The notes under the pieces were generated by a model. The model did not search any database and was not told the DNA's origin. It saw only the letters and a list, made by a program, of their open reading frames with translations. The position numbers were made by a program, and so were the translations under genes. This document shows, one piece after another, positions 32,873 to 51,808 of a stretch of 64,000 nucleotides of DNA. The DNA is taken from positions 10,753 through 74,752 of the forward strand of contig JBJFGS010000018.1 of assembly GCA_051892935.1 (NCBI GenBank), given 5' to 3'. This DNA comes from Candidatus Coprovivens sp. (GTDB lineage Bacteria > Bacillota_I > Bacilli_A > RF39 > UBA660). Each line of letters begins with the position of its first letter. Within the stretch, counting starts at the first letter, position 1.

Positions 32873-32887
32873 AAGACTTTTTTTTAT

Positions 32888-32932
32888 GAATAAAATAAAC
32901 TCCTTTCACCCTAAATACTTATGAAAGGAGTT
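32888..32932 (+). promoter_or_regulatory. sigG leader: SigF/SigG-like promoter plus RBS-sequestering inverted repeat
   Basis: GAATA-18bp-CTAAATA; AACTCCTTTCA (32898-32908) is perfectly complementary to TGAAAGGAGTT (32922-32932), which contains the RBS. Confidence 0.7.
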
Positions 32933-32935
32933 ATT

Positions 32936-33709
32936 ATGTACAATAAGAAAGTTGAAATACCAGGAGTAAATACAAGCGAATTAAAAACCTTGAGTAATGA
33001 AGAAATGACTGAATTATTTATCGCATATCAAAATGGTGATAAAACAGCCAAAGATAAATTAGTAGAAAGTAATCTTAAATTAGTTTTAAGTATCTTAAAA
33101 AGATTTAAAACTAATGAATCTAATATAAATGATCTTTTTCAAATAGGATGTATAGGTTTAATTAAAGCTATTGATAATTTCGATTTATCACTAAATGTAT
33201 GCTTTAGTACATATGCTGTATTTCTAATCAAAGGAGAAATATTACGAGCATTTCGTGATTCAACTCCCATAAGAGTAAGCCGAAGTACCAAAGATATTGC
33301 CAACAAAATCTTAGATTATAAAGAAGAATACTATAATCAACATGGGCATGAACCAACCAACGAAGAAATATCAAAAAAATTAGGAATAGATGAATACTAC
33401 ATAGGCTATGCTCTAACATCACTAAAAGAACCAATAAGTATTTATAGTCCTATATACAATGATGGTGGTGACACAATTTACTTACTAGACCAAATTGCTA
33501 CCAAAGAACCAGTTTATGATAAAGAAACATTACTATCATTAAGAAGAGCCCTAGGAAAACTAAAAGATCGTGAAAAACAAATAATATATAGTAGATATAT
33601 CTATGGTAAAACCCAAACTGAATTAAGTGAAGAACTAAACATCTCCCAAGCACAAGTATCACGAATCGAAAAAACCGCCCTTGAAAACATTAAAAAATTA
33701 GTAAAATAA
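32936..33709 (+). CDS. sigG: Sporulation sigma factor SigG
   Basis: SigG-type N-terminus KVEIPGVNTSEL; DLFQIGCIGLIKAIDNFD; PIYNDGGDTIYLLDQI; ISQAQVSRIEK. Confidence 0.9.
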   Translation: MYNKKVEIPGVNTSELKTLSNEEMTELFIAYQNGDKTAKDKLVESNLKLVLSILKRFKTNESNINDLFQIGCIGLIKAIDNFDLSLNVCFSTYAVFLIKGEILRAFRDSTPIRVSRSTKDIANKILDYKEEYYNQHGHEPTNEEISKKLGIDEYYIGYALTSLKEPISIYSPIYNDGGDTIYLLDQIATKEPVYDKETLLSLRRALGKLKDREKQIIYSRYIYGKTQTELSEELNISQAQVSRIEKTALENIKKLVK

Positions 33710-33731
33710 TGATATAATATTCATAAGAAGG

Positions 33732-34802
33732 ATGATGTTTATGAATAAGAAAAAAATACTAACCATAATAGCAATTATTATAATAATTATCTTATCAATA
33801 GTATTAATTGTAAAAAAAGAAGATGAAAAGAAAGACGAAGAACCAATAAATAAAGATTATATATTTATTAATTCCCAGAAACTAAATCAAGACTTTGAAA
33901 TAAACACTAATAATGATGGATATTCTACATTAGGAATTGCAACTAATCAAGAAGAATACGAAAAAATATTAACTCAATATAATATTAATATCGAAAATGA
34001 ATCAAAAAAAGACTATTCTAAAAATAACTATGCTCTTATTGTTATAAGATATATTGAATGTAATGAAGAAATAGAACCTAAAAACATTACGACTTCTAAA
34101 GATAAAGTAACACTAAAATTCAATGTTATTGGCTTGTGTGGCTTATGTAGCCCAAGTTACAACTTATACGAAGCCGAAATACCAAAAAACATTACATCAA
34201 AAGATAATGTTAATATAGAATATGAATACAAAAAAAGTGATTGTGATATAAATGTCGAATATAAACCAGTATTGTATCTATATCCAAAAAAGACAACAAC
34301 TATAAAAGTTAATTTTGAACATGAAGAAAGACTTACAACAACATATCCAAAATATAAAGAAGAATGGCAAGTAATTGCTAATCCTAATGGTGATTTATAT
34401 GATAGTAATAACAACTATTACTATGCCCTATATTGGGAAGAAGTTTCTAAAAGAAATATCGACTTTAGTGAAGGATTCTACGTAACAAAAGATAATGCAA
34501 TATCATTTCTTGAAGAAAAACTAACTATTCTAGGATTAAATCCAAAAGAAAGAAATGAATTCATTATGTACTGGTTACCAGTATTAGAAAACAATCAACA
34601 AAGTATAGTATATTTTGAACTAACTAAAGAACTTCAAAATAATAACAAATTAATAATAAGTCCAGAACCTGATACATTAATTAGAATAAGAATAAATATA
34701 AAGAAAGTATCAGAAAAACCAATAATCAAAGAGCAACAATTAACTAAACAAGAAAGAAACGGATTTACAGCTATTGAATGGGGTGGCGTAATCCATAACT
34801 AA
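33732..34802 (+). CDS. Hypothetical membrane-anchored exported protein (KPVLYLYP..EWGG family)
   Basis: N-terminal TM; KPVLYLYP, YYALYWE, EFIMYWLP, EWGG; own TGATATAAT at 33710. Confidence 0.75.
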   Translation: MMFMNKKKILTIIAIIIIIILSIVLIVKKEDEKKDEEPINKDYIFINSQKLNQDFEINTNNDGYSTLGIATNQEEYEKILTQYNINIENESKKDYSKNNYALIVIRYIECNEEIEPKNITTSKDKVTLKFNVIGLCGLCSPSYNLYEAEIPKNITSKDNVNIEYEYKKSDCDINVEYKPVLYLYPKKTTTIKVNFEHEERLTTTYPKYKEEWQVIANPNGDLYDSNNNYYYALYWEEVSKRNIDFSEGFYVTKDNAISFLEEKLTILGLNPKERNEFIMYWLPVLENNQQSIVYFELTKELQNNNKLIISPEPDTLIRIRINIKKVSEKPIIKEQQLTKQERNGFTAIEWGGVIHN

Positions 34803-34822
34803 AATATTTAAGTAATAAAATA

Positions 34823-34863
34823 ATAAAAACATATAATTATAATAGGTGATTATATGTTTTTAT
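34823..34863 (+). promoter_or_regulatory. Inverted repeat covering ylmC RBS and start codon, with SigE-like -10 in 5' arm
   Basis: AAAAACATATAAT (34825-34837) / ATTATATGTTTTT (34849-34861), extendable; CATATAAT resembles SigE -10 CATAcaaT. Confidence 0.6.
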
Positions 34864-35078
34864 CTGAATTACAAAGTAAAGATATTATAAGTACAAAAGA
34901 TGGCCGCCGTCTTGGAAGAATAATAGATGCCGAAATAAATAACCAAGGTCAAATAATAACTCTAGTTTTAGAAGAAAAAAAATCATTTAAAAAAATAATG
35001 ATGTCAACAAATGACTCCAAAGTTCCCTTTACCAGTATAACCAAAATAGGTGAGGATGTAATTTTAGTAGATATATGA
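34854..35078 (+). CDS. ylmC: YlmC/YmxH family sporulation PRC-barrel protein
   Basis: LSELQSKDII..DGRRLG.I.D, I.KIGEDVILVD; located downstream of sigG. Confidence 0.9.
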   Translation: MFLSELQSKDIISTKDGRRLGRIIDAEINNQGQIITLVLEEKKSFKKIMMSTNDSKVPFTSITKIGEDVILVDI

Positions 35079-35102
35079 TATAATGTAGCGGAGGTGTAAC
35101 CA

Positions 35103-35609
35103 GTGAATAAAAAAATATTAATAATAGCCATAATTGCCTTAGCACTTGATCAAATAACTAAAGTAACATTTAGCATTTTTCTTACAATAAATCAATCCAT
35201 AAAAGTAATTCCAAACTTTTTTTATTTGACTTTAGTTCATAATAAAGGAGCAGCTTGGGGAATATTTAGTAATAGTCGAGCTATAATTGCTATAGGTACG
35301 ATAATATCTTTAATTCTAATATATCATTTTATATATTGTTTTAAACAAAATAGTAGAAATAATTTAGCTTTTGGGTTATTATTAGGTGGACTAGGTGGAA
35401 ACTTAATAGATCGTATATTATTTGGTTACGTAAGAGATTTTTTAGATTTTTATATTTTTAATTATGATTATCCTGTATTCAATGTAGCAGATATAGCTAT
35501 AGTACTAGGTGTAATCTTATTAATAATAGCAGTAATAAAGGGGGAAGATGTTAATGAAAATAATAGTAACAGAAAACAAAGAAAGACTAGACAAATATCT
35601 AGCAAATAA
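35103..35609 (+). CDS. lspA: Lipoprotein signal peptidase II
   Basis: DQITK, NKGAAWG, GNLIDR, VRDF, PVFNVAD. Confidence 0.96.
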   Translation: MNKKILIIAIIALALDQITKVTFSIFLTINQSIKVIPNFFYLTLVHNKGAAWGIFSNSRAIIAIGTIISLILIYHFIYCFKQNSRNNLAFGLLLGGLGGNLIDRILFGYVRDFLDFYIFNYDYPVFNVADIAIVLGVILLIIAVIKGEDVNENNSNRKQRKTRQISSK

Positions 35610-36450
35610 TACGGAATACTCTCGTTCAACAATTATGAAAATGCTTGATGCTGAATACATAAAAGTAAATGGTAAACAAGAAAAAGCTTCATATAAAGTA
35701 AGAATAAATGATGAAATAGAAATAAAAGATGGTTTTATCGAAGAAAATGATATTACACCAGTAGAAATGCCTATTGATATAGTATATGAAGATGATGATA
35801 TACTTGTTGTAAACAAACCAAGTGGTTTAGTAGTTCATCCTGGTTCGGGAAATTACGATAATACACTTGTAAATGGTTTAATGTATTATACTAATACACT
35901 AAGTGATATCAACGGTGAAGAAAGACCAGGTATTGTTCATCGTATTGATAAAGATACATCAGGTTTATTATTAATAGCTAAGAATAATAAATCTCATGCT
36001 ATACTTACAGAATACTTTAAAGAACATCAAAATATCAAAAGAGAATACATAGCCTTAATATGTGGCAACTTCCCTCATGAATCGGCAACAATAGATGCTC
36101 CAATAGGTAGAGATCCAAAAGATAGAAAAAAAATGACAGTTACTGCAGATAATTCTAAAGAAGCAATAACTCATTTAAAAGTACTAAAAAGATATCACGA
36201 CTACACACTAGTAAGTTTAGTTCTCGAAACAGGTCGTACACATCAAATAAGAGTACATATGAATTATATAGGATATCCTATATATAATGATCCTGTATAT
36301 AATACAAAAAAATGTACAGAATTTGGCCAATTCTTACATTCATACAAAATGGATTTTATTCATCCAATAACCAAAAAAGAGATGCACTTTGAAGCTCCAC
36401 TTCCAAAAGAATTTCAAAACTTTATAGACTCATTAGATAAAGATCTATAA
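35554..36450 (+). CDS. RluA/RluD-family pseudouridine synthase
   Basis: S4 domain RLDKYL, NKPSGLVVHP, HRIDKDTSG, GRTHQIRVH; follows lspA. Confidence 0.95.
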   Translation: MKIIVTENKERLDKYLANNTEYSRSTIMKMLDAEYIKVNGKQEKASYKVRINDEIEIKDGFIEENDITPVEMPIDIVYEDDDILVVNKPSGLVVHPGSGNYDNTLVNGLMYYTNTLSDINGEERPGIVHRIDKDTSGLLLIAKNNKSHAILTEYFKEHQNIKREYIALICGNFPHESATIDAPIGRDPKDRKKMTVTADNSKEAITHLKVLKRYHDYTLVSLVLETGRTHQIRVHMNYIGYPIYNDPVYNTKKCTEFGQFLHSYKMDFIHPITKKEMHFEAPLPKEFQNFIDSLDKDL

Positions 36451-36757
36451 TAAGATAAAATAAAAAAACAATATATATTAGATATGGAATAGATAACAAT
36501 CTATATTTATCATATGTTATCTTAATTTCATAATTCAAAAAAATTGTATTTAAAAGTAAAAAAAACATATTAACTAAACTAAATAAATAATCTTTATAGT
36601 AGAATAAAAAAACTAAAAAAGAAAATGACAAAATAAAATTAGATATAACAAAAAAGACTAAATCATTTTTCATTTTCTTTTCAAAAATAAGCCTACAAAA
36701 AAGAATAGATATCAATAATAAGACAATTAAATAAATAATAACCAATATATTAAACAT
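36422..36757 (-). CDS. Small hydrophobic membrane protein (weak TspO-like C-terminus)
   Basis: GAGGTG RBS on minus strand; about 4 TM segments; LLSIPYLIYIVF resembles TspO LL.PYL.W..F; CATATTAT upstream. Confidence 0.6.
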   Translation of the reverse strand: MFNILVIIYLIVLLLISILFCRLIFEKKMKNDLVFFVISNFILSFSFLVFLFYYKDYLFSLVNMFFLLLNTIFLNYEIKITYDKYRLLSIPYLIYIVFLFYLIIDLYLMSL

Positions 36758-36816
36758 TATCCCACCTCATATTAAATAATATGTAATAAAGATAATTATA
36801 TGAAAACGAGGAAAAC

Positions 36817-38685
36817 ATGAAAGATTATACATTATTAAAAGACAGATTAACAAAAGAAAAACAAATAACTACCAAAGACATAGTTTCTTTAGGCTTTAGC
36901 CAATATGATATAAAAGTATTTATTGAAAACAACATTTTAACTAAAGTATCTAGAGGTTTATATTACTATCGTCCTTCTTTAATTGCAGAAGAAACAGAAA
37001 AAAACAATATAGAAGAACAAATGCAAGAAAAAAAAACAGAAGAACAAGAAAAACAAAATATAAAAGATGACCTAAATTATCAAGTTAAAAATGCAACATA
37101 TCTAATGATAAAAAAAGAAACAGATAAAGCTATTAAATCATTTGAAGAAGTACTAAAAAAAGACCCAAGCAATCAATATGCAAGATTTGCTATCTTTGCA
37201 TGCTTTATGTTTAAAAAAGATTTTGCAACTGCTTATAATAAATTAATTCAATTATATAATAATCGAATAAATGATGAACTTTTATTTAATATATATTATT
37301 ATATGTTACTCTTAAAAGAGTTAATTCCAATAGATGAAAAAATATTAAATGATATAGCAAATATTATAGCAACAGAAGGAACAAATATTAAAAGACCACA
37401 AGAAGGTTCAACCACTAAAAAATTAATAAGAGCTATCAGTAAAGAAGATTGGGAAAAAGCTTTTAAGTATGCAAACATTAATATAAGCATTGATAGAAAT
37501 CAAAGAAAATATCATCTCACTAATCAATGTTATAGATTTTTAGTAATAGCAGTTATTAAAAGTAAAAACTTAATATTCGAAAGAAAACAAGAAGAACCAG
37601 TCCCAGAAATAGAAATTGAAGAAGAACCAACTATCATTGTTCCACAAACTACAATAGATCAAACAATTAAACAAAATTTACTATTAGAAGCAATCAATAG
37701 TAATGATTATCAAACAGCACTAACTCTTTTAGAACAAGAAAAAATAGATAATCCTGAATTAATAATAAAAACTCTATTAACAAAACTTCATAGTATTCAA
37801 AGTCTAATAACCACAACAATCCCAATAAAAGTAACTACTACAGAAAATGTAAGATTAGTAGATGAAAATGAATTAGAAACACCAAAACTAACTGAAAAAG
37901 CTTTTGAGGAAGAAAAAAAAGTTGAACCACCAATAGTAACACCAACTAATCCTGAATCAAGCAAGAGTAATCCAGAACAACTAATAAATACTGCTTATAT
38001 GGCATACAAGGAATTTTTAACTATACAAAACTTCGAAGAAGCTCGACGTAATCTACAAAGATATGAATACTTAATTAATAATAACGGAGCACATCGTAAT
38101 ATAAAATACCACTATAATAGAATAGCATTATTAGAACAAGAATATACTTCCAATCCAAACAGATACTTTCAACATCAAGATTTACAAGAAAAAATTTTTC
38201 AAGCTAAAAAAAGAAAATCTTATAAAGAAGTTTTATCTTTAATATCTGAATATAAAAGATTAGGCGGTATAATCCAGCCAATAGTTCAAGTAATAGAAGC
38301 CGAAATGTACATAATGCAAAACGACCTTGAACAAGCAGAAATAATACTCTCTAATATAAAAGATAATGAAGAACCTGAGTACTTTACTGCTAAAGCACGT
38401 ATTTACTATGAGCAAAGAAAATTTGAAGAATGTATAAAAATGTGTATTGCTTATAATGAGAGAAGACCATCATATAATGCCGCTAATTACATTATGTTAG
38501 CTAATTGTTATAAAAGGTTAAATAAACCAAGTAAAGCATTAAAAGCACTACGTAAAGCAGATGAAATAAATAAAGCAAAAAATTATATTAAAGATTTATC
38601 CAGTGATATAGCTGATTTAGAATATCAATCAGATATTCAAAAAGAAATACGATTATCTATGACCCCTAAAAAAAATAAAAAATAA
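36817..38685 (+). CDS. AbiEi-type winged-HTH fused to TPR repeats
   Basis: ITTKDIVSLGFS..LTKVSRGLY N-terminus; TPR patterns AIKSFEEVLKKDPSNQYA, ARIYYEQRKFEEC, LANCYKRL..KALKA. Confidence 0.7.
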   Translation: MKDYTLLKDRLTKEKQITTKDIVSLGFSQYDIKVFIENNILTKVSRGLYYYRPSLIAEETEKNNIEEQMQEKKTEEQEKQNIKDDLNYQVKNATYLMIKKETDKAIKSFEEVLKKDPSNQYARFAIFACFMFKKDFATAYNKLIQLYNNRINDELLFNIYYYMLLLKELIPIDEKILNDIANIIATEGTNIKRPQEGSTTKKLIRAISKEDWEKAFKYANINISIDRNQRKYHLTNQCYRFLVIAVIKSKNLIFERKQEEPVPEIEIEEEPTIIVPQTTIDQTIKQNLLLEAINSNDYQTALTLLEQEKIDNPELIIKTLLTKLHSIQSLITTTIPIKVTTTENVRLVDENELETPKLTEKAFEEEKKVEPPIVTPTNPESSKSNPEQLINTAYMAYKEFLTIQNFEEARRNLQRYEYLINNNGAHRNIKYHYNRIALLEQEYTSNPNRYFQHQDLQEKIFQAKKRKSYKEVLSLISEYKRLGGIIQPIVQVIEAEMYIMQNDLEQAEIILSNIKDNEEPEYFTAKARIYYEQRKFEECIKMCIAYNERRPSYNAANYIMLANCYKRLNKPSKALKALRKADEINKAKNYIKDLSSDIADLEYQSDIQKEIRLSMTPKKNKK

Positions 38686-38753
38686 TTAAAAAAGGATAGA
38701 GTTATTTGAAAATACTTAAAATTTGATATAATATAATTAATAGGAGGTACAAT

Positions 38754-39914
38754 ATGAGTACTATTGTTATGAATAAAAAAGATGAAATAATTATGAAATT
38801 AGTTCATTATTTCATTACCGAAGAAAATTATAATCCTATAGTAGTTAATGGAGTAAAAGATGAAATATGGTTAGAAAACTCTGAAGGACCATATCGTATC
38901 ATAAGAATTAATTCGAATAATATTTTTAATAAAGAACAATTAAATTATGATTTTTTCAAAATAGAAAGTATTGTTCGTCAAATAAAAAAGAAAACATTAT
39001 CATTTAATGTTAATACTCTAAATATATTATTAGATGTTAATGAAGATTTAAAAATAGAAGCACCTAAAAATATAAAACCAGTACCATTAATTGGAAATGA
39101 TTTAAATATTACTGATGAAGATATCTTAGAAGCTTTTCCAAACATTAATGAGAAACTACTAAAAGATTCAACTGGAGTAGATTTAATAATAAATGTAACT
39201 AAAGATATCAATGAAAAAACAGAAAAAGATAATAGAATATATGAAAAAACATTTAAACCTAAAAAGATTGTTTTTACAAATCTAATAATTATTGCTTGTA
39301 TCATAATGTTTATCATAGAATGCATTATGGATGGAGCAGGTGTTCTATTTAAAGGAGTAACTACTTCTACGGCAATTAATCTAGGAGCTAATATAAGAGC
39401 GCTATTACAAGCAGGAGAAATATGGCGATTAGTTACAGCAGCATTCTTACATGCCAATTTAATTCACTTAGCACTTAATATGTATTCATTATATATAGTT
39501 GGTAGTCAAATAGAAACATTCCTAGGTAAAGTAAAATTCCTTATAATATACTTTATAAGTGCAATAGCCGGATGTTTATTATCAGCAGTTTCTTCAGGTT
39601 CTCCATCTGTTGGAGCATCTGGAGCAATATTTGGTCTACTAGGAGCATTATTATATTTTGGATATCATTATCGTACTTATTTAGGTAATGTTGTTAAAAC
39701 ACAAATATTACCAATTATAGTTTTAAACTTAGCTATCGGATTTATGTCAACAAGTATTGACAACTTTGCTCATATAGGTGGTTTAATAGGTGGAATATTC
39801 ACAACAATGGCTCTTGGTGTAGATGGACGATCTAAAACATATGAGAAAATAAATGGTTTCCTATGTTTAATTATTTTTATAGGATTCCTTAGTTATTTAT
39901 TATTCTTTGCATAA
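38754..39914 (+). CDS. Rhomboid intramembrane serine protease (GluP/YqgP-like)
   Basis: GEIWRLVTAAFLH, HL.LN, GASGAIFG, AHIGG; soluble N-terminal domain. Confidence 0.93.
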   Translation: MSTIVMNKKDEIIMKLVHYFITEENYNPIVVNGVKDEIWLENSEGPYRIIRINSNNIFNKEQLNYDFFKIESIVRQIKKKTLSFNVNTLNILLDVNEDLKIEAPKNIKPVPLIGNDLNITDEDILEAFPNINEKLLKDSTGVDLIINVTKDINEKTEKDNRIYEKTFKPKKIVFTNLIIIACIIMFIIECIMDGAGVLFKGVTTSTAINLGANIRALLQAGEIWRLVTAAFLHANLIHLALNMYSLYIVGSQIETFLGKVKFLIIYFISAIAGCLLSAVSSGSPSVGASGAIFGLLGALLYFGYHYRTYLGNVVKTQILPIIVLNLAIGFMSTSIDNFAHIGGLIGGIFTTMALGVDGRSKTYEKINGFLCLIIFIGFLSYLLFFA

Positions 39915-39944
39915 AAAAACTTAATCACATGATTAAGTTTTTTT
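39913..39944. terminator. Bidirectional terminator between rhomboid and lexA
   Basis: AAAAAAACTTAATC-acat-GATTAAGTTTTTTT. Confidence 0.8.
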
Positions 39945-39965
39945 CTATTCCTTCTTCTTTAATTA

Positions 39966-40586
39966 TTATAAACTTCTATATAAGCCAATAGCTTTACCTA
40001 ATATTGTACAATTATCTAATATAATAGGACTCATTGTATCATTCTCAGGTTGTAATCTAATATAATCCTTTTCTTTATAAAAAGTCTTCAACGTAACATC
40101 TCCATCATCAGTCATAGCAACAACTATTTCACCATTACGAGCAACTTTTTGCTTTTGAACTATAATTATATCTCCATCATAGATACCTACATTTATCATT
40201 GACTCACCACTAGCTTTCAAAGTAAATATAGTCTCCCTAGCAGGAATTAAACTAGCGGGCAATGTAAACCATTCATCAGGATTTTCAATTGCTTCAATTG
40301 GATTACCACAAGAAACAGTACCTAATAACGGAACTTTAACTAATTCTTCATCTTTTTTAGCAAATTCATTATCACCAACAATTTCAATTGTTCTAAATTT
40401 TGAATTAGTTTTTCTTATACAACCAGCATCTTCTAATTTTTTTAAATGTGTATGTACAGTAGCAGGTGATGATAAACCAAGTGCTGAACCAATTTCTCTT
40501 GTTGAAGGTGGAAATCCATGCTCAACTACATATTTTTTTATATAGTTAAGAACATCTTCTTGTCTTTTTGTAATGTTTTTATCCAT
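39966..40586 (-). CDS. lexA: SOS repressor LexA
   Basis: GFPPSTREIG..SPATVH.HL, VSCGNP cleavage region, GESM, VTLK; GGAGGT RBS before ATG at 40586. Confidence 0.97.
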   Translation of the reverse strand: MDKNITKRQEDVLNYIKKYVVEHGFPPSTREIGSALGLSSPATVHTHLKKLEDAGCIRKTNSKFRTIEIVGDNEFAKKDEELVKVPLLGTVSCGNPIEAIENPDEWFTLPASLIPARETIFTLKASGESMINVGIYDGDIIIVQKQKVARNGEIVVAMTDDGDVTLKTFYKEKDYIRLQPENDTMSPIILDNCTILGKAIGLYRSL

Positions 40587-40630
40587 ATGCTTACCTCCAT
40601 TTAAATAATAGCATATCAAGTGTAAAAAGT

Positions 40631-40682
40631 CAAACAAATGTTTTATTATATTATTGACACGAACGAATGTATGTAATATAAT
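40631..40682. promoter_or_regulatory. Two LexA (Cheo-type) boxes over divergent promoters
   Basis: CAAACAAATGTTTT (40631-40644) overlaps the lexA -35; CGAACGAATGTATG (40660-40673) lies in the spacer of a perfect TTGACA-17-TATAAT (40654-40682). Confidence 0.8.
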
Positions 40683-40713
40683 AAAGATGGTAAAAGGAAG
40701 AAGGAGTGATTAT

Positions 40714-40848
40714 ATGAAAAATGAAACTATTAGAAATATGGCAGGAATTATACTATTTTATTTATTTATAGTATTAGGTGTTGTTGCAATTAATGCTAGA
40801 ATGGCAAGTATTTCTGAAAATGCCAATGTAGTAACCATGTCTAATTAA
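40714..40848 (+). CDS. 44-aa single-TM peptide in the yneA/sosA position, candidate SOS division inhibitor
   Basis: AAGGAG RBS; divergent from lexA; one TM; followed by terminator ATATCAGTT/AACTGATAT+T. Confidence 0.7.
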   Translation: MKNETIRNMAGIILFYLFIVLGVVAINARMASISENANVVTMSN

Positions 40849-40906
40849 TATCAGTTTTAACTGATATTTTTTTATGATATAATAAAAAAATAGAAGAGGT
40901 GTTCAT

Positions 40907-42004
40907 ATGAAAGATAACAACGAAAATAATAACGATAATCTATTTACCCAAATGTTCGGAATTGAATCAGAACAACAAACTCCACCGATTACAAAAGAAG
41001 AGCCAATTATGCAAGAAAATCCATTCCAAACTCTCGATTCATCTGAACAACACCCAAATATAAAAGAAGAACAAAATACTCTGGAAGACAACAAATCAAT
41101 TCAATCATTAAATCAAAACAATCCCAATAAACCAAATAATGAACCAGATATAATAACATTAACTTCTACTCCAAAAGAAGAACCAAATACAATAAAAGAA
41201 CAACCTCCACAAGAAAATATCATTCCAAAATTTGATTCAAATGCTATCCCAACAAATCAATATAATCAGTACTCAGATAATAATCAATTAGATAATGATG
41301 ATATATCTACAAACGGAACAGGTTTAAAAATCTCGTTAGTATTAATAGGAATCATAGTTCTCTCATTTGGATGGTTATATTTTTATAATTTTGTTCTTAA
41401 TCCTAGCACAGAAAATCCTAACCAACAATTAGAAAAAAACTCATCAACTGATGAAAAAGAAGACGAAGAAACAGAAGAACCAATTGTAATTAACTTTTCT
41501 CAAAATCTAAGTTTTTATAAAGGTTTAGTAGATGATGAAAACGAACTAAATCAAGAAACACCTTACGAACCAGCAGCCAAAACAGGAGTTATAAAATGTG
41601 AATTAATTGAACCATTAAAAGATAGTTCATTAACTACTAATACAATCACATATTTATATTACGAAAAAAACTTATTAAAAAAATCATATATGCAACAAAT
41701 GATTAATATTAGTGATAAAAATACATTTACTACTTTAGCAAATTACTACAAAGAACTTGAAAGTCAATATACTAACACTGAAAATTTTACTCTTGATATT
41801 CAAATAGATTATATATCTCAAACTATTACTGTCGGAATATTTTCTAATTTAGCATATGGTAGTTATGTAAAATCTCCAATAGAAGGAATGAATCTCCAAA
41901 TAAAACTAAATTATAACGATACAATAAAGAAATCAATGGGAGTTCTTCTTGGTGCTGAAGAAACTCTAGGTAACGTAAAATGTAGTTCAGTTAAAACATC
42001 ATAA
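40907..42004 (+). CDS. Hypothetical bitopic membrane protein with disordered N/Q/P/E-rich N-terminus
   Basis: Low-complexity N-terminus, single TM, C-terminal domain with two Cys. Confidence 0.7.
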   Translation: MKDNNENNNDNLFTQMFGIESEQQTPPITKEEPIMQENPFQTLDSSEQHPNIKEEQNTLEDNKSIQSLNQNNPNKPNNEPDIITLTSTPKEEPNTIKEQPPQENIIPKFDSNAIPTNQYNQYSDNNQLDNDDISTNGTGLKISLVLIGIIVLSFGWLYFYNFVLNPSTENPNQQLEKNSSTDEKEDEETEEPIVINFSQNLSFYKGLVDDENELNQETPYEPAAKTGVIKCELIEPLKDSSLTTNTITYLYYEKNLLKKSYMQQMINISDKNTFTTLANYYKELESQYTNTENFTLDIQIDYISQTITVGIFSNLAYGSYVKSPIEGMNLQIKLNYNDTIKKSMGVLLGAEETLGNVKCSSVKTS

Positions 42005-42078
42005 GCAAATTATCAATTTGCTTTTTTATTTTAAATTAAAAAAATATATTGTATAATCTTAATAAGAGGTTGGTAAAC

Positions 42079-43212: not shown

Positions 43213-43317
43213 GTCCTATCAAGGACTTTATTTTAATTTACTACAAAAAGAAACTTAATTTTTTTAATTTACTATTAACTAAAAATTGGTATAATTATAA
43301 AGTAGGAGAGTGATAAT

Positions 43318-45300
43318 ATGAACCCTGAACTTCATTCACTTAATAGTTTAAGAGTCTTAAGTGTCGACATGATATCATATGCCAAAAGTGGACATCCTGG
43401 TATTTGTCTGGGCGCAGCTCCAATTATATTTAGTTTATACACAAATCACTTAATAGCAAATCCAGCTGATCCAAAGTGGCCTAATAGAGATCGTTTTGTA
43501 ATGTCAGCAGGACATGGGTCAGCATTACTTTATGCAATGCTATTCATGGCCGGATATGATATATCAATTGATGATTTAGTTGACTTCAGAAAAATATCAT
43601 CAAAGACACCAGGACACCCTGAATATGGAGTAACACCAGGCGTTGAGGTTTCAACTGGACCATTAGGACAAGGGTTAGCAAACGCAGTTGGAATGGCTAT
43701 GGCTGAAAAATACCTTGCAGCATTAGTTGAAGAAGAAATACCTAAACAAAAAGTTATTAATTATCATGTTTACTGTCTTGTTGGTGATGGTGACTTAATG
43801 GAAGGTATAGCTGATGAAGCAGCTTCTTTAGCTGGTAATCTTGCATTAGATAACTTAATAGTATTATATGATTCAAATGATATAACGTTAGATGGTGAAA
43901 TGAAAAAAACATCTAATACCAACATCATTCAAAAGTATATTAATATGGGTTGGGAAGTAGACTTTGTCGGTGAAGGAAATGAAATAAAAGAAATTGATAA
44001 AGCAATTGAAAGAGCTAAAATAAATCGTAAACCAACCTTAATAGAAATCAAAACTGTAATAGGCCGTGGTTCTCAGCACGAAGGAAAAAACCTTGTTCAT
44101 GGAAAACCATTAAGTAGAGAAGACCTAGTAATTGTAAGAAAAAAATATGGTATAGAAACAAACACAATGGAAATAACAGAAAACGCTGTTAAATATGTTC
44201 GTGAAACAATTAATAGTCGTGTACGTAATCAATACACAACTTGGAAAAAATCCCTTGAACAAATAAAAAGAGATGGACCAACTGAAAAATTAAAAAGTAT
44301 CTTAAATTTCATTGAAACTGGCGATGATGGCTTAAATTTTAGTAGTTCTAGTTTTAAAATACAAAATAACTATAGTGAAGAATTACGTGAATCAAATTCA
44401 AAAATAATGAATATAGTAAGCGATCGCTCAAAATTTTTCTTAGGCGGTAGTGCTGATTTATCTACATCATGTCATACAGCTTTATATAAAGAAGTAGACT
44501 ATAGTAGAAAAGAAAGAACAGGAAGAAACATTTTCTTTGGTGTAAGAGAACATGCTATGGCTGCTATTTTAAATGGAATGTCCTTAAGTGGCTTAAGAAC
44601 ATTCGGTTCAACATTCCTAGTTTTTTCTGACTATCTAAAACCAGCTCTAAGAATGACTGCTCAAATGAACTTACCAGTTACATATATCTTTACTCATGAC
44701 TCCGTATCCATAGGGCAAGACGGACCATCCCATCAACCAATAGAACAACTAGCAATGCTAAGAACAACTCCAAACTTAATAGTATTCCGCCCTGCAGATA
44801 TTAATGAAGTAATTGGCAGTTGGGATTATATCATAAGTAATAAACGTCCAGTAGCTATCGTATTATCCAAAGATGAAGCTCATATCCTTGCTGGAACAAG
44901 TGGAGAACAAACTAAAAATGGTGCATACATAATCAAAAAAGAAACATCAAGATTAGATGCTGTTTTAATAAGTACTGGAATAGATCTAACAACAACTTAT
45001 TTAATAAGTGAAGAATTACGTAGTAGAGGAATAGATACTAGATTAGTATCAATGCCATCTGTCGAAGTCTTCCTAAATCAATCAGAAAGTTATCAAAACG
45101 AAATTATTCCACCAAATGCCAAAGTAATAACCGTGGAAGCATCCTCAACAATGCCTTGGTATCGTTTTGCTTCACGTGGTTGTGCAATAGGTATGGATGA
45201 ATTTGGTTATAGTGGTAAAAAAGATGATGTTTTAGAAAAAATGAACTTTGATTACGATTCAATAATGAAAAAAGTAGAAAACTGTATTAGAAATAACTAA
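43318..45300 (+). CDS. tkt: Transketolase
   Basis: SGHPG, RDRFVMSAGHGS, GDGDLMEG, GVREHAM, THDSVSIGQDGPSHQP. Confidence 0.97.
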   Translation: MNPELHSLNSLRVLSVDMISYAKSGHPGICLGAAPIIFSLYTNHLIANPADPKWPNRDRFVMSAGHGSALLYAMLFMAGYDISIDDLVDFRKISSKTPGHPEYGVTPGVEVSTGPLGQGLANAVGMAMAEKYLAALVEEEIPKQKVINYHVYCLVGDGDLMEGIADEAASLAGNLALDNLIVLYDSNDITLDGEMKKTSNTNIIQKYINMGWEVDFVGEGNEIKEIDKAIERAKINRKPTLIEIKTVIGRGSQHEGKNLVHGKPLSREDLVIVRKKYGIETNTMEITENAVKYVRETINSRVRNQYTTWKKSLEQIKRDGPTEKLKSILNFIETGDDGLNFSSSSFKIQNNYSEELRESNSKIMNIVSDRSKFFLGGSADLSTSCHTALYKEVDYSRKERTGRNIFFGVREHAMAAILNGMSLSGLRTFGSTFLVFSDYLKPALRMTAQMNLPVTYIFTHDSVSIGQDGPSHQPIEQLAMLRTTPNLIVFRPADINEVIGSWDYIISNKRPVAIVLSKDEAHILAGTSGEQTKNGAYIIKKETSRLDAVLISTGIDLTTTYLISEELRSRGIDTRLVSMPSVEVFLNQSESYQNEIIPPNAKVITVEASSTMPWYRFASRGCAIGMDEFGYSGKKDDVLEKMNFDYDSIMKKVENCIRNN

Positions 45301-45314
45301 AAACGACAAAAACT

Positions 45315-45348
45315 AATCACCAAGTTTTATAAAATAAACTTGGTGATT
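45315..45348 (+). promoter_or_regulatory. Inverted repeat burying sirA RBS, with -10-like loop
   Basis: AATCACCAAGTTT-tataaaat-AAACTTGGTGATT (13 bp perfect). Confidence 0.7.
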
Positions 45349-45351
45349 TTA

Positions 45352-45765
45352 ATGAGAACTTTCTACCTATTTAAAATAAAACCAGAATACTCAATACTAA
45401 CAAAAGAAAATCCCTATAACCTATATAAAGCAATAGAAGGAATATACCACTTAAAACAAGAAGAACTAACAAATGGATATAACTTCTTTAATCAAATAAG
45501 AGATACATTTAATAAAGAATACCTAGATAACAACATATTTGAATACTATAAAAATAAGTATACTTATACTAAAGTAAATAACACACATATAATAAATGAT
45601 TATTATACAGAAGAAAAATCAAAACTAATAATAAACAAAACATACCTTATAATTAAAACAACTCTAGAATATTCTTCATTCTTAAAAGCTATAACTAAGA
45701 AAAAAAATATCTTTGTTTGTGATTTTGATAATATAGATTACTTTTGGTTAGAAGAATATCAATAA
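45352..45765 (+). CDS. sirA: Sporulation inhibitor of replication SirA (YneE)
   Basis: MRTFYLFKIK N-terminus, FVCDF.N.DYFWL C-terminus; tkt-sirA-yneF order as in Bacillus. Confidence 0.75.
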   Translation: MRTFYLFKIKPEYSILTKENPYNLYKAIEGIYHLKQEELTNGYNFFNQIRDTFNKEYLDNNIFEYYKNKYTYTKVNNTHIINDYYTEEKSKLIINKTYLIIKTTLEYSSFLKAITKKKNIFVCDFDNIDYFWLEEYQ

Positions 45766-45822
45766 TCACTTGTTAAATACATAAATATTTAGTAAAATAA
45801 ACATACAAAGGAGAGTGCTAAT

Positions 45823-46032
45823 ATGTGGATAGACATCTTATATATAGTAATAGGCTTAGTAGTAGGATTTATTATAGGATTTCTTATTACTAGAAAAATA
45901 TTTAAAAAACAATTAGAGGAAAATCCTCCAATAAATAAAAAAATGATAGAAGCTATGATGAGTAGTATGGGAAGAAAACCAAGTCAAAAACAAGTAAGAC
46001 AAGTAATGCAACAAATGAATAAGTTCAGATAA
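45823..46032 (+). CDS. yneF: YneF family (UPF0154) protein
   Basis: TM then [27 protein letters not shown]. Confidence 0.93.
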
Positions 46033-46170
46033 AAAGATATTTTTAAATATCTTTTTTTAAATATCTTTAAAAAAATAAAAAAATGTCGTACAATATTTTT
46101 ATAAATAACAATTGAGAAATATACATATTTTATGTTATTCTTAATATATAGAATAAAAGGGTGTGCGACA

Positions 46171-46668
46171 ATGAATTTACTAATCGTTTTAAATATAATT
46201 AATCAAATATATGAACATGAACTATTTCCTAAAGTTTTAACATGCGCAATTATACTCCTAATATTTTTATTTATTTTAATCTTTATAATAGGTCTTCGTG
46301 ACGCAAAAAAAACAAAAAATCCCCCTAAAATTGAAGAAGAAGATATAAAAGATATTACATTTGATGTTGTAAAAGAACAAAATCAAATAAAAGAAGATGT
46401 TACATTTGAAATGCCCGTTTTGACAAAAAATCTAGAAGACTTCAAAAAAAACCTTGAAGAAGAAATTCAAAAAGAATCAGAAGTAGAAATAATGAAAACA
46501 ATAAATCCAGATATTCCAGAAGAAAAAGCAACCAAAATTCTTGATATTAAAGAAATAGAAGATACCGCGATACTTCCTGAACTAGTTACTGAAAGAATCG
46601 AGAAACTAAAAGAAAATAGTGAAAAAGAAATGGAATTACCAAAATATTCAAACAAGTCCGAAAAATAA
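46171..46668 (+). CDS. Hypothetical membrane protein with acidic cytoplasmic tail
   Basis: One TM then E/K-rich region; start uncertain. Confidence 0.6.
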   Translation: MNLLIVLNIINQIYEHELFPKVLTCAIILLIFLFILIFIIGLRDAKKTKNPPKIEEEDIKDITFDVVKEQNQIKEDVTFEMPVLTKNLEDFKKNLEEEIQKESEVEIMKTINPDIPEEKATKILDIKEIEDTAILPELVTERIEKLKENSEKEMELPKYSNKSEK

Positions 46669-46747
46669 AGGAGAATTGACATTATCAATCGTCAAATCTC
46701 TTTTTTTTTTCACCAAACTTGTGTTATACTAGCTATGGTGAAAAAGA

Positions 46748-48658
46748 ATGACAACAACAAAATATGACGAAACATCTATAAAAATATTAGAAGGCCTAGA
46801 TGCCGTAAGAAAACGTCCTGGTATGTACATTGGATCTACAGATAAAAGAGGACTTCATCATTTAGTTTGGGAAATTGTCGATAATGCCATTGATGAAAGT
46901 ATTAACGGCTTCGGCGACTACATAAAAATTACCCTTAATAAAGATGGCTCAGTAACAATAGAAGACCATGGTCGCGGAGTTCCAATAGGAAAACACGAAA
47001 GTGGAATGTCAACTCCAGAAGTAGTATACACAATACTTCATGCCGGAGGTAAATTTGAAGAATCAGGATACAAAGTATCAGGAGGACTACATGGAGTAGG
47101 TGCATCAGTAGTTAATGCTCTTAGTAAAAAAATGGAAGTAACAATTTACAAAGAAGGCGTTATAAGTAATATAAAATTTGAAAATGGTGGCCATACTGTC
47201 CAAAAACTAAAACAAATAGGTACAACAAATAGAACTGGTACAACAGTAACATTTTTACCAGATCCAGAAATATTTAAAAGTACTAATTTTTCATTTACAA
47301 CAATTACTGAACGTATGCAAGAAAGCGCATTTTTACTTAGCGGTTTAACTATTGAAGTAATAGACGAAGAAGATAATCGTAGTGCTAAATTTTTCTACGA
47401 AAATGGTTTAATAAACTTCGTTGAATACATTAACGAAGGAAAAACAGTTCTACATAAAGTAATCAGCTTTAATGGTATAAAACAAGGTATAGAAGTAGAT
47501 ATAGCACTTCAATATCAAGAAGGCTATAACGAAAATATTTTATCATTTGTAAATAACGTTAAAACAAGCGATGGTGGTACACATGAAACCGGATTTAAAT
47601 CAGGTATTACTAAAGCTTTTAATGACTACGCAAAAGAAAATAATATCTTAAAAGGAAAAGATGCTACATTCGAAGGCTCAGACGTCCGTGAAGGATTAAG
47701 TGCTGTAATTAATCTAAAAATACCAGAAGCACTTCTTCAATTCGAAGGTCAAACTAAAGGAAAATTAGGTACACCAGAAGCACGTACTGTAACAGAACAA
47801 ATAACATATGAAAATATGAAATTCTTCTTAGAAGAAAACCGTGAAATAGCATTAACTATTGTTGAAAAAGCATCTCGTAGTAAAGTTGCCCGTGAAGCCG
47901 CACGAAAAGCCAGAGAAGCAGCACGAAGTGGTAAAGGTAAAGAAAAGAAAGAAAAAATACTTAGTGGAAAACTAGCTAAAGCAACAGGTAAAGACTTTAC
48001 CAAAAATGAACTGTTCCTAGTCGAAGGAGACTCTGCTGGAGGTTCAGCTAAAACAGGAAGAAATAGAGAAACACAAGCAATTTTACCATTAAGAGGTAAA
48101 GTTCTTAATTGTGAAAAAGCATCTAATAATGATATAAATAGTAACGAAGAATTAAATACCTTAACATATGCTATAGGTGCTGGAATAGGTAATGAATTTG
48201 ACCCAGCAGAATCAAACTATGGAAAAGTAATAATAATGACCGATGCCGATGATGATGGCGCTCATATTCAAATACTTCTTTTAACATTTTTCTATCGTTT
48301 CATGCGCCCTTTAATAGAAGCAGGAATGTTGTATATTGCTAATCCCCCTTTATATGCCCTTGATTTTGGAAAATATAAAGAATACGTAGCAACAGACGAA
48401 GACTTAGAAAAAAGAAAAAAAGAAGTAAAACAAGCATACAAAGTTCAACGATTTAAAGGTTTAGGTGAAATGGATGCCGATGAACTATACGAAACAACAA
48501 TGAACCCTGCAACAAGAAGTTTAATAAAAGTAACCATTGATGATGCAGCATTAGCTGAAAAACGTGTTTCAGTACTTATGGGTGATAAAGTTGAACCACG
48601 TAAAGAATGGATAGAAGAAAACGTTGACTTTACATTAGAAGATGGATTTAGGAGGTAA
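46748..48658 (+). CDS. parE: DNA topoisomerase IV subunit B
   Basis: VRKRPGMYIGSTD, EGDSAGGSAK, PLRGK, MTDADDDG, MGDKVEPRKEWIE; precedes parC. Confidence 0.93.
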   Translation: MTTTKYDETSIKILEGLDAVRKRPGMYIGSTDKRGLHHLVWEIVDNAIDESINGFGDYIKITLNKDGSVTIEDHGRGVPIGKHESGMSTPEVVYTILHAGGKFEESGYKVSGGLHGVGASVVNALSKKMEVTIYKEGVISNIKFENGGHTVQKLKQIGTTNRTGTTVTFLPDPEIFKSTNFSFTTITERMQESAFLLSGLTIEVIDEEDNRSAKFFYENGLINFVEYINEGKTVLHKVISFNGIKQGIEVDIALQYQEGYNENILSFVNNVKTSDGGTHETGFKSGITKAFNDYAKENNILKGKDATFEGSDVREGLSAVINLKIPEALLQFEGQTKGKLGTPEARTVTEQITYENMKFFLEENREIALTIVEKASRSKVAREAARKAREAARSGKGKEKKEKILSGKLAKATGKDFTKNELFLVEGDSAGGSAKTGRNRETQAILPLRGKVLNCEKASNNDINSNEELNTLTYAIGAGIGNEFDPAESNYGKVIIMTDADDDGAHIQILLLTFFYRFMRPLIEAGMLYIANPPLYALDFGKYKEYVATDEDLEKRKKEVKQAYKVQRFKGLGEMDADELYETTMNPATRSLIKVTIDDAALAEKRVSVLMGDKVEPRKEWIEENVDFTLEDGFRR

Positions 48659-48663
48659 TCAAA

Positions 48664-51210
48664 ATGGCAAAGACAAAAGAAGAAAAAAATATCATCGAGA
48701 AAATATATGATTATACTCTAGAAGATATAATGGGGGATAGATTTGGAAGATATTCCAAATCTATTATCCAAGATCGTGCTCTACCAGATGTAAGAGATGG
48801 TCTAAAGCCAGTTCAAAGAAGAATTCTATATACAATGTGGGAAAGTAAAAACACTCACGATAAACCATATCGCAAATGCGCCAAAGCAGTTGGTGATGTA
48901 ATGGGAAAATACCATCCACATGGTGATTCTTCAATATATGGTGCCATGATATATATGTCTCAACCATGGAAAATGCGTGAAATATTTATTGATATTCATG
49001 GAAATAATGGTTCAATTGATGGAGATGGTCCAGCAGCTCATCGTTATACAGAAACAAGACTTACTAAATTAGCTTTAGTAATGCTTAAAGACATTAATCG
49101 TGATGCTGTAGAAATGACCCTTAATTACGCTGATGAAGACTTAGAACCAACAGTTCTACCAGCAAACTTTCCAAACCTATTAGTTAATGGTTCTACAGGT
49201 ATTTCAGCTGGATACGCAACAAACATTCCACCACACAATCTTGGTGAAATAATTGATGCAACAATTCATCGTATTGATAATCCAAACTGCCGTTTAGATA
49301 CGATTTTAAATATCGTTAAAGGACCAGACTTTCCAACAGGTGGTGTAGTTGAAGGAAAAGAAGGATTACTACAAGCATATTCAACAGGACGTGGTCGTGT
49401 TGTTGTAAAAGCTCGTACTGAAATCGTAAAAGAAAAAGGTACTCATCAAATCATTATTCATGAAATACCTTATGATGTTTTAAAAGAACAACTACGCAAG
49501 AAAATTGAAGATATCAAAATAGATAAAAAAGTAGAAGGCATTACCGATATAATAGATGTTTCTGATAAAGAACACATGGCCAAAATTATCATCGAACTAA
49601 AAAAAGATGCTAATGCTGAACTAATTTTAAACTATTTACTAAAAAATACTGATTTACAAGTAAACTATAATTTTAATATGGTAGCAATTGTAAATCGTCG
49701 TCCAAAACAATTAAGTATTTTAGAAATATTAGATGCTTTCATAAGTCATCAAAAAGATGTTATATTACGTCGAACTAGATTCGACCTTGGAAAAGCTAAA
49801 GAAAGATTACATATCGTAGAAGGCTTATTAAAAGCAGTCGATATAATGGATGAAATAATAAAGATAATTAGAGCTTCTAAAAATAAGCAAGACTCTATTG
49901 ATAATCTTGTAAGTAAATTTGCTTTCACTATTGAGCAAGCAACAGCAATCGTAATGATGCGCTTATATACATTATCAAATACAGATATAAATTTATTATT
50001 AGAAGAACAAGAAAATCTTCGTAAAATGATTGAATTCTTAACTTCAATTCTTGAAGATGAAGAAATATTGAAAAAGCAAATGAAATCAAGTTTAATTGAA
50101 ATCAAAAAAGAATTCGGAACTCCACGTCGTACAGAAATAAAAGATGAAGTTACTGAAGTTAAATTCGATCCAAAAGATATGATTCCAAAAGAAAATGTTA
50201 TCGTTGTCGCAACAAATGAAGGATATGTAAAACGTATTCCTATAAAATCATATGTTAGTGCTAGTAGTGAACCTACTACTTTAAAACCAGGAGATTTTAT
50301 AAGAGGTTTATATAGTACAACTACACTTGATACATTATTAATGTTCACTAATCTAGGTCATTATTTATATGTCCCAGTTCATGAGATAGTAGAAACAAAG
50401 TGGAAAGAATTAGGTAAACATATTAGTAATCTAATTCAAATAAGTGCTGAAGAAAAAATTATCTCTGCCATGATTCTTGATAATCCAAAAGATAATATAA
50501 TAATGACAACTAAAAATGGTATTACAAAACGTACAAATCTTGAAAAATTAATAGTAAGTAGATATACAAAACCAATAAATGCTATGAAACTAAAAGATGA
50601 TGATGAAATAGTTTCTGTAGTAAAAGATAATGGCCGCGCTATTTTTGTAACAGAAACTGGATATTATGTAAACATTGATTCAAACGAAATCCCTATTGTT
50701 GGAGCAAAAGCATCAGGAGTAAAAGGAATCAACGTTAAAGACGATCACGTAGTTACATGTATGTCACCTGCACCATATGATGAATACATAACAATATTTA
50801 CTAATAAAAATACATCAAAACGTATTAAAATATGTGAACTTGATACCATGACAAGAGCTAAAAAAGGATCAACATTAATAAAAAAAGTAAAATCTACAAA
50901 TTACAAAATAACAAATGCAATATCAGTTAACAATCGTGATATTGTAAGTATAAAAACTGATGGTGATTTTAAAGAAATAAAAACTACTGAACTACCAATT
51001 ATGGACTTATCATCAACAGGAAGTACTATTTCTAAAACACCAATTGAAGATAGTTTCAAAGTAGCCGAATTAGTTGAACGAAAAATAGAACTTAATGCAA
51101 CAGAAGAATCCCTAAATAAGAATGTAGATAATATAGAAGAATTACCAAAAGAAAAAAAAGAAAATCAAGAACTTACAATTAATGACTTCTTAGAAGATTT
51201 TAAATTATAG
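48664..51210 (+). CDS. parC: DNA topoisomerase IV subunit A
   Basis: [50 protein letters not shown]. Confidence 0.93.
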
Positions 51211-51212
51211 TA

Positions 51213-51255
51213 AAAAAATCACTTATTAAACATAAAATTTAATAGGTGATTTTTT
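51213..51255 (+). promoter_or_regulatory. Inverted repeat burying ylbD RBS, with SigE-like -10 in loop
   Basis: AAAAAATCACTTATTAAA-cataaaa-TTTAATAGGTGATTTTTT (18 bp, one G-U). Confidence 0.7.
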
Positions 51256-51589: not shown

Positions 51590-51808
51590 ATGGATAGAAT
51601 AGTTTTAGAAAAAATCAAAAAAGATAAACTATTTGAATATTTCAAATTAAACTCCTTTTATATAAAAGAATTAAATAGAAACCCAGCATACTACGATACA
51701 CTAAAAAAAATCCTAAAAGAAAAATACAATCTAAGAATTACAGATAAAGTATCAAACGTAATTAATGATATAGAATTAGTAAGTTCAATAGTAAGCTCAA
51801 TAAACTAA
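51590..51808 (+). CDS. YlbE-like protein
   Basis: Follows ylbD; Y.KELNRNP and DKV..I pattern. Confidence 0.65.
   Translation: MDRIVLEKIKKDKLFEYFKLNSFYIKELNRNPAYYDTLKKILKEKYNLRITDKVSNVINDIELVSSIVSSIN

Follow-up and report, generated by a model that had tools for sequence, protein, structure and literature searches.

RBS-covering hairpins at four sporulation genes

The 64,000-nt stretch analyzed here (the window) belongs to contig C18 from a Candidatus Coprovivens genome (1.81 Mb, 53 contigs, 92% complete, ~27% GC) from the order RF39, which is predicted to be capable of sporulation (PMC10868615). Within the window, sigG, ylmC, sirA and ylbD each lie downstream of a co-directional gene without a sporulation family match, namely a Tim44-like gene (sigG), a 353-aa open reading frame (ORF; ylmC), tkt (sirA) and parC (ylbD). 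Each of the four carries an inverted repeat of 11-18 bp that begins 2-25 bases past the upstream stop codon and holds the ribosome-binding site (RBS) or start codon in its 3´ arm (Table 1). A -10-like box, kept in orthologue alignments, lies in the loop for sigG, sirA and ylbD and in the 5´ arm for ylmC, where it pairs with the start-codon region. The repeats, their -10-like boxes, the setting behind non-sporulation genes and the gene names had been proposed in a first-pass annotation of the sequence. Coordinates, folding, alignments and NCBIfam or Pfam matches (SirA just under the cut-off) bear all of these out.

In windows from -60 to +15 around the start, the four hairpins folded at -15.9 to -16.5 kcal/mol (z -4.2 to -6.2), and 0-1 of 200 shuffles of each window was as stable. 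RNA modeled from -13, as expected from an internal promoter, would lack the 5´ arm and be essentially unstructured, with a predicted folding energy of just -0.6 to -2.8 kcal/mol. We then scored each gene in the genome (1,721 were called by a simple script) by the energetic cost of unpairing positions -16 to +6 in the long RNA, termed RBS-opening energy. Among 1,708 genes ranked in this way, ylmC was 5th, ylbD 10th, sirA 13th and sigG 25th, and for none of the four did shuffling only the upstream sequence match the observed value (0/100 each). As for the housekeeping genes described as having a free RBS, fmt, tkt and nfo were unremarkable, while parE has a weaker RBS-pairing stem. In this genome, 1,412/1,670 genes (85%) have a co-directional upstream neighbor. 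We hypothesized that the hairpins insulate sporulation genes from vegetative read-through and that a predicted sporulation promoter inside each one escapes by starting RNA within the 3´ arm; we consider this the probable explanation.

Table 1. Hairpins, predicted promoter elements and genes at the four loci (positions in the window)
Feature	Position	Strand	Evidence and remarks
Stand-alone terminator-like hairpin with T-run	32860..32884	+	End of the gene upstream of sigG
Predicted sigG -35 box, sigma-F/G type	32888..32892	+	Conserved in orthologue alignment; B. subtilis promoter table
sigG hairpin, 11-bp core	5´ arm 32898-32908, loop 32909-32921, 3´ arm 32922-32932	+	5´ arm, promoter spacer; loop, predicted -10 box; 3´ arm, RBS
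sigG coding sequence, 257 aa	32936..33709	+	NCBIfam SigG, E 1e-95
353-aa gene between sigG and ylmC	33741..34802	+	No assigned family; extended -10-like sigma-A box 33710-33718
ylmC hairpin, 18 bp, AU-rich	34823-34840/34846-34863	+	Over AUG; predicted sigma-E-type -10 box 34830-34837 in 5´ arm
ylmC-like coding sequence, 74 aa	34854..35078	+	PRC barrel, Pfam E 1e-8; name by fold and position
tkt	43318..45300	+	Housekeeping; no separate terminator before sirA
-35/Spo0A-box-like element upstream of sirA	45302..45309	+	Conserved in sirA orthologues
sirA hairpin, 13 bp	45315-45327/45336-45348 (feature 45315..45351)	+	-10-like box is loop 45328-45335; RBS in 3´ arm; short T-run before start
sirA coding sequence, 137 aa	45352..45765	+	Pfam SirA, E 2e-5, just under cut-off
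parE RBS-pairing stem, 9 bp, weaker	46707-46715/46736-46744	+	-10-like box in loop
parC, upstream of ylbD	48664..51210	+	Housekeeping; stop codon 2 bases before ylbD hairpin; name by sequence
ylbD hairpin, 18 bp	51213-51230/51238-51255	+	CATA-type -10 box in loop 51231-51238; RBS in 3´ arm
ylbD coding sequence, 110 aa	51256..51588	+	Pfam YlbD_coat, E 2.5e-16
ylbE-like gene after ylbD	51590-51808	+	YlbE, E 0.005

RBS hairpins are enriched at sporulation genes

Enrichment was assessed with a case-control Pfam scan of the 150 top-ranked genes plus a random sample of 300 from the other 1,540 (450/1,690), run in shuffled order on proteins cut to 420 residues. Strictly sporulation-named families were found for 8/150 top genes and 3/300 random genes (P=0.008). 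With sigma factors, ylmC, yrbG, gerE, cotJC, spmA, spoVT and sirA added, the counts rose to 15/150 and 6/300, with an odds ratio of 5.4 (P=0.00045). Of the six random-set genes, three are operon-internal and the others are spo0A, spoVS and sigF. We also compiled a list of sporulation lead genes by eye, with a family check on 150 and 22 candidates, and counted a hairpin where the RBS-opening energy was at least 11 kcal/mol, a cut-off also used for orthologues. Family-supported lead genes passed in 13/32 cases, compared with 31/953 others; the corresponding odds ratio of 20 is inflated because the list was partly picked by eye after the top ranks had been seen, and the fair effect size is the case-control odds ratio. 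A class defined independently of annotation, by a CATA-type box 20-31 bases before the start, passed in 10/43 cases versus 35/948 (P=8e-6). For co-directional sporulation lead genes only, the counts were 9/25 versus 19/760, and no operon-internal sporulation gene carried the hairpin (0/13). Thus the hairpin is present at roughly 25-40% of sporulation lead genes. The regulon-level design suggested in the first-pass annotation stands as an enrichment over other genes, shuffles and swapped upstream regions (below), but is not regulon-wide among either the lead genes or the CATA-box genes.

The top-ranked hairpin belongs to gene 482 (contig C25, 86915-87481), where a perfect 17-bp repeat covers the RBS and start of a membrane gene and the 5´ arm includes a sigma-E-type -35 box. 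This gene looks spoIIM-like by eye and was kept off the strict list, as it has no Pfam or NCBIfam match; five other genes named merely by position or generic domains were also left off. Three transposase genes (479, 288 and 1689) were in the top 50, at ranks 16, 45 and 18. Insertion sequences of the IS10 type protect themselves with hairpins in which read-through RNA folds over the RBS and RNA from the element's own promoter does not, which would predict high-ranking transposase genes. hrcA ranked 12th through an operator-like repeat.

Because the CATA of sporulation promoter boxes complements the common start context, some pairing comes free. To control for this, start regions were combined with the upstream parts of other genes. 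With a 37-gene sporulation list, these swapped controls had a mean RBS-opening energy of 6.3-6.6 kcal/mol compared to 9.7 observed (background genes, 5.0-5.1 and 5.2), and 4-8.5% were over the cut-off compared to 38% observed; for the CATA class, the values were 4.5-6% and 23%. Composition accounts for a small part of the signal, and most of the pairing is gene-specific. That the hairpins are altogether a by-product, with CATA boxes near the start complementing the start context, AT-rich DNA pairing readily and RBSs pairing head to head, is improbable. The swapped controls of the sporulation class did exceed background (median 5.9 vs 4.6-4.9). Among the top ranks are several divergent gene pairs, in which the two RBSs pair head to head, and orthologues of the divergent gene yrbG showed no excess over their swapped control (3/26, median 7.2 vs 7.2); composition probably explains these pairs, and they were set aside. 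It is already insufficient for the co-directional genes, where the enrichment remains, and the stems of ylbD, sirA, spoIIR and sigG use an anti-RBS arm in the promoter spacer, not the CATA box.

Predicted promoters lie within the hairpins

Compared with the B. subtilis table, the predicted promoter boxes correspond to sigma-F/G, sigma-E/K and sigma-A types, with that of sirA being sigma-A/Spo0A-like. Orthologues of sigG and spoIIR keep a sigma-F/G-type -35 box together with a -10 box in the loop, and those of ylbD and ylmC keep the CATA box. Most of the 27 sirA orthologues share a -35 element ~19-21 bases upstream of a TATAAT-like box. Read on the other strand, this element is what we take to be a Spo0A box, which suggests that sirA may be activated directly by Spo0A. 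CATA-type -10 boxes are positioned just ~5-9 bases before the RBS at 17/37 sporulation lead genes, which would give leaders of 10-14 bases. Another 26 genes share a CATA-type box, and several of these (e.g. ids 52, 89, 292, 1178 and 1316) are probably unrecognized sporulation genes.

In B. subtilis, RNA starts 2-8 bases after such -10 boxes, several times right at the RBS, and many sporulation RNAs begin at the RBS (PMC8208050 supplement 2). When this spacing is applied here, the RNA is predicted to start 10-14 bases before the AUG, inside the 3´ arm. The same spacing bears on whether the hairpin could lie in the true leader of the sporulation RNA, with a start upstream of the 5´ arm and a stem that damps or times translation, as for the small leader hairpin of B. 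subtilis sigG (PMC5942855). We find such an arrangement hard to credit for these genes: the hairpin itself contains and is bordered by the conserved -35 and -10 boxes, a stem of -16 kcal/mol would leave the gene almost silent, and the versions with a T-run would terminate the RNA. The overlap between inverted repeats and promoter could also point to a DNA-level element, either an operator for a dimeric repressor or a cruciform, and the operator repeat of hrcA does rank high. This is very unlikely, given that the four repeats and their orthologues share no sequence beyond the RBS complement, G-U pairs are common, and arm sequence and loop length vary freely.

The hairpins are repeatedly gained or lost among relatives

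We found ylbD in 105/120 genomes of the family, with one genome per genus. The orthologue counts are based on a fixed set of 30 genomes, which favors closer ylbD sequences because it was chosen through the 29 best ylbD matches (plus one genome); one sigG and two spoIIR loci were left out for a short flank or a missing start call. The cut-off was passed by 18/29 sigG (swapped control, 14-16%), 12/29 ylbD (13/30 including this genome; control, 13-15%), 8/28 spoIIR (control, 2.5-5.5%) and 7/27 sirA orthologues (control, 2-4.5%), and by 1/50 orthologues of flanking genes other than parE. Of a further set of Bacilli-like sigG loci 27/45 passed; the signal was weaker for the sigG leaders of Clostridia-like matches (9/27 vs 17% control). 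Genera differ in both the sequence and the register of the stem, and by eye the RBS region of some spoIIR orthologues appeared to have changed together with its partner. On a five-protein tree, the hairpin changed state 11 times for sigG (present in 19/30), 8 times for ylbD (13/30), 7 times for spoIIR and 5 times for sirA. This scatter over the tree indicates a hairpin that was repeatedly gained or lost, not one conserved RNA.

The strong stem at ylmC is lineage-specific. In 19/29 relatives ylmC directly follows sigG; here the 353-aa gene lies between them and is the likely source of read-through into ylmC. Some insulator was present at ylmC in 7/10 relatives where it is apart from sigG versus 2/19 where the genes are adjacent (P=0.002), with RBS hairpins accounting for 2/10 and 1/19. 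This natural experiment, which involves mostly ordinary terminators, supports the need for insulation, not the RBS hairpin as the device. ylmC was also sought at the three closest sigG loci and recovered at none (0/3).

Hairpins alternate with upstream terminators

Terminators were scored with a formula for B. subtilis terminators, and the cut-off of -2 was set at a gap in the scores after these had been seen. Among co-directional sporulation genes in this genome, a separate upstream terminator was detected for 1/9 genes with a hairpin and 12/16 others (P=0.004); among orthologues, the counts were 3/48 and 29/94 and, with a cut-off of 0 and spoIIR left out, 2/40 and 18/74 (P=0.01), though these P values overstate the exclusivity because kin are not independent. 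The RBS hairpin and the ordinary upstream terminator are two solutions that can stand in for each other. The sigG leader here has a separate terminator and no T-run, while that of a 91%-identical relative has six T and no separate terminator.

In many cases the hairpin itself resembles a terminator, and it scored as one in 38/48 hairpin orthologues. Six T immediately precede the ATG of ylbD, where the hairpin is terminator-like, and a T-run of at least four before the start, a feature counted without reference to folding, was found in 11/12 ylbD orthologues with the hairpin versus 1/17 without, and in 13/18 versus 2/11 for sigG (background, 115/953). For sirA no association was seen (1/7 vs 4/20). 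By the same score, a stem directly followed by a U-run is present at ylbD and at most hairpin-bearing orthologues of ylbD, sigG and spoIIR, is borderline at sirA and is absent at sigG here. The first-pass annotation expected read-through RNA to be untranslatable or to terminate; for ylbD, spoIIR and many sigG orthologues, the sequence favors predicted termination rather than a purely translational lock.

These results raise the possibility that the hairpins are only space-saving terminators, formed where short gaps push the upstream terminator onto the next promoter and where, at 27% GC, the RBS is the sole G-rich sequence; silencing would then be a side effect, and the A-run and T-run ends could also stop antisense RNA. 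The terminator-like scores and the exclusivity with separate terminators are consistent with this, as are the short gaps before hairpin genes (24-63 bases for most) and the ylbD stem, which follows the parC stop at once with no other terminator. Even so, we regard the explanation as unlikely. RBS terminators at gaps of 35-130 bases were found for 6/23 sporulation genes versus only 15/571 non-sporulation genes, so that an economy equally open to housekeeping promoters is mostly unused, and parE orthologues have none. In addition, sigG here has both devices, and the ylmC, gerE and spoVT stems lie over the AUG without a T-run.

Neither this genome nor any of 30 relatives (24 of them at least 90% complete) yielded a match to the Rho RNA-binding domain, whereas it was found in 9/14 controls. 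The 31 genomes keep a large sporulation gene set.

A model for insulation from read-through

The stems, their enrichment at sporulation genes, the gene-specific complementarity, the occurrence mostly where a separate upstream terminator is missing and the T-runs are established. In the insulation model that we favor, read-through RNA from the upstream gene would hold both arms and fold into the hairpin. Where a U-rich spacer follows the RBS (ylbD, spoIIR, many sigG orthologues and, weakly, sirA), the hairpin would act as the intrinsic terminator of the upstream gene and the RNA would end just before the AUG; where the AUG is paired (ylmC, gerE and spoVT here), initiation would be blocked. The sporulation -10 box ~17-26 bases before the AUG would instead direct RNA from ~10-14 bases before the AUG, and this short RNA, lacking the 5´ arm, would escape termination and be translated. 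Because the 5´ arm is supplied by the free promoter spacer, such a device would be easily gained or lost and would alternate with ordinary terminators. An insulator is likely needed all the more because Rho appears to be lacking.

Several observations weigh against the model, in addition to the inflated lead-gene odds ratio and the compositional share of the signal, including the yrbG result. Most sporulation lead genes (19/32) lack a strong hairpin, among them spoIVA, spoIVB, cwlD, cwlJ, spoIIP and gerAA, and neither device was detected by our cut-offs in 59/142 sporulation orthologue leaders (ylbD 13, sigG 6, sirA 9, ylmC 20 and spoIIR 11), with most of the ylmC leaders in this group following sigG directly. 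The hairpin is also rare in relatives at ylmC (3/29, above the swapped control yet low), spoVT (1/7) and gene 482 (0/3). At parE, the stem (z -3.4, 1/200 shuffles) is a partial counter-example; it competes with an upstream terminator, ranks only 444/1,690 and is missing in 28/28 orthologues. With a terminator cut-off of 0, exclusivity in this genome was not significant (1/9 vs 7/16, P=0.18), and a T-run is not proof of termination because the A-run that follows the -35 box is another possible pairing partner. Finally, the covariation anticipated across orthologous leaders was weak when scored by column: RNAalifold gave no consensus structure for all sigG or all ylbD leaders, and 12/500 ylbD and 80/500 sigG shuffles had a covariation score as high as that observed, with sigG no better than a slid register. 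In view of the absent consensus and the weak structure counts, column-wise covariation is not claimed.

A broader reading, to which we would give somewhat less than an even chance, is that Rho-less, genome-reduced Bacilli keep sporulation partly off in growth with a repeatedly evolved ~40-base three-in-one element, in which the RBS would serve as the terminator 3´ arm, the RBS-to-start spacer as the U-run, and an inner promoter as the source of a near-leaderless bypass RNA. Such a design could be widespread and unrecognized in B. subtilis sporulation regulons.

Relation to known systems

The basic trick is already known from B. subtilis sigG, phage T4 late genes and the sigma-B regulon; here it recurs across the sporulation program. 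A regulon-level version, which the first-pass annotation did not know of, has been published for sigma-B as isoform-specific translational activation, reported for 8/12 B. subtilis genes (McCormick et al., 2021; PMC8208050). As in that system, the genes described here lie behind co-directional housekeeping genes and have their own predicted alternative-sigma promoter (sigma-A/Spo0A-like for sirA), and their RBS is predicted to be paired in the long and free in the short RNA. In both systems a subset of the regulon is involved and weaker structures go with an upstream terminator, as was noted for sigma-B, where other sigma factors were suggested to act alike (PMC8208050). Unlike the sigma-B structures, which are long-range and typically include the upstream stop codon, the stems here are compact and begin after it, the promoter boxes are not of the sigma-B type and the regulons are those of sporulation. 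In addition, many of the hairpins look like RBS-plus-spacer terminators, which would give no long isoform, and the hosts, known here from sequence alone, apparently lack Rho and have 0.7-1.8 Mb genomes. The hairpins would work like the sigma-B, sigG and T4 designs, yet fall outside the sigma-B class on two tested features.

For sigG, the small leader hairpin of B. subtilis had been named as the precedent, but the closer match is a larger one: a hairpin of 20+ bp that prevents read-through RNA from being translated and cannot form in RNA from the gene's own promoter (PMC5942855, describing Masuda 1988). The gene is the same, and in both cases the 5´ arm of the RBS hairpin is upstream of the predicted or known start site. 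Read-through in B. subtilis comes from spoIIGA-sigE, whereas the upstream gene here is Tim44-like, and no counterpart of the small in-leader hairpin from Mearls 2018 is predicted (short RNA, -0.6 kcal/mol). sigG is apart from spoIIGA-sigE in this genome, with spoIIGA and a sigE-like gene on contig C14 (19145-19834). The phage T4 genes e, soc, 49 and I-TevI have a late promoter within the 5´ part of an RBS-sequestering hairpin, such that the early long RNA is silent and the late short RNA is translated (PMC3014915). The stage-specific promoter predicted here has the same place, in the 5´ arm or loop; the T4 hairpins serve phage timing genes, and a terminator role is not among the features described for them in that source. 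The hairpins at ylbD, spoIIR and many sigG orthologues resemble ordinary intrinsic terminators in sequence, with a stem and U-run right after the upstream stop, but here the 3´ arm is the RBS of the next gene, whose RBS-to-start spacer provides the U-run and whose promoter boxes occupy the loop and flank. Hairpins of the IS10 type differ in serving mobile elements rather than a developmental regulon.

In B. subtilis, 40 of ~200 promoter rows for sigma-E, -F, -G and -K (counted by eye) lie mainly under a longer growth RNA, including those of ylbD, spoIIR, spoVT and gerE (PMC8208050 supplement 2). In the yqfC and sspN rows, the spacer between the -35 and -10 boxes contains an RBS complement by eye, hinting that the same design may exist there. 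A literature search, mostly outside subscription journals, returned no description of a sporulation-wide version or of an RBS-plus-spacer terminator beyond the papers cited.

At the sequence level, these results support the still open prediction that promoter-in-hairpin control of isoforms extends to alternative-sigma regulons other than sigma-B, and they name testable genes (sigG, ylbD, spoIIR and sirA). They offer a possible answer to how, in a compact and largely co-directional genome with no detectable Rho, developmental genes such as those for a replication inhibitor and a late sigma factor are kept off in growth. The selective pattern also speaks for continued regulation of sporulation genes in these uncultured gut Bacilli. 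Used as a genetic part, the 40-base overlap of terminator, promoter and RBS would make a compact, low-leak switch.

Other observations

A spoVB-like ORF (contig C25, 122429-123286) matches its model from position 145 on, which points to a mis-called start or a broken 5´ end. In the window, a small TspO/MBR-like membrane ORF (36422-36757, minus strand; Pfam E 4e-4) overlaps the end of a pseudouridine synthase gene. Elsewhere in the genome, contig C23 carries phi29-like phage genes (tail knob, encapsidation protein and holin), and contig C31 a CRISPR Csn2 gene.

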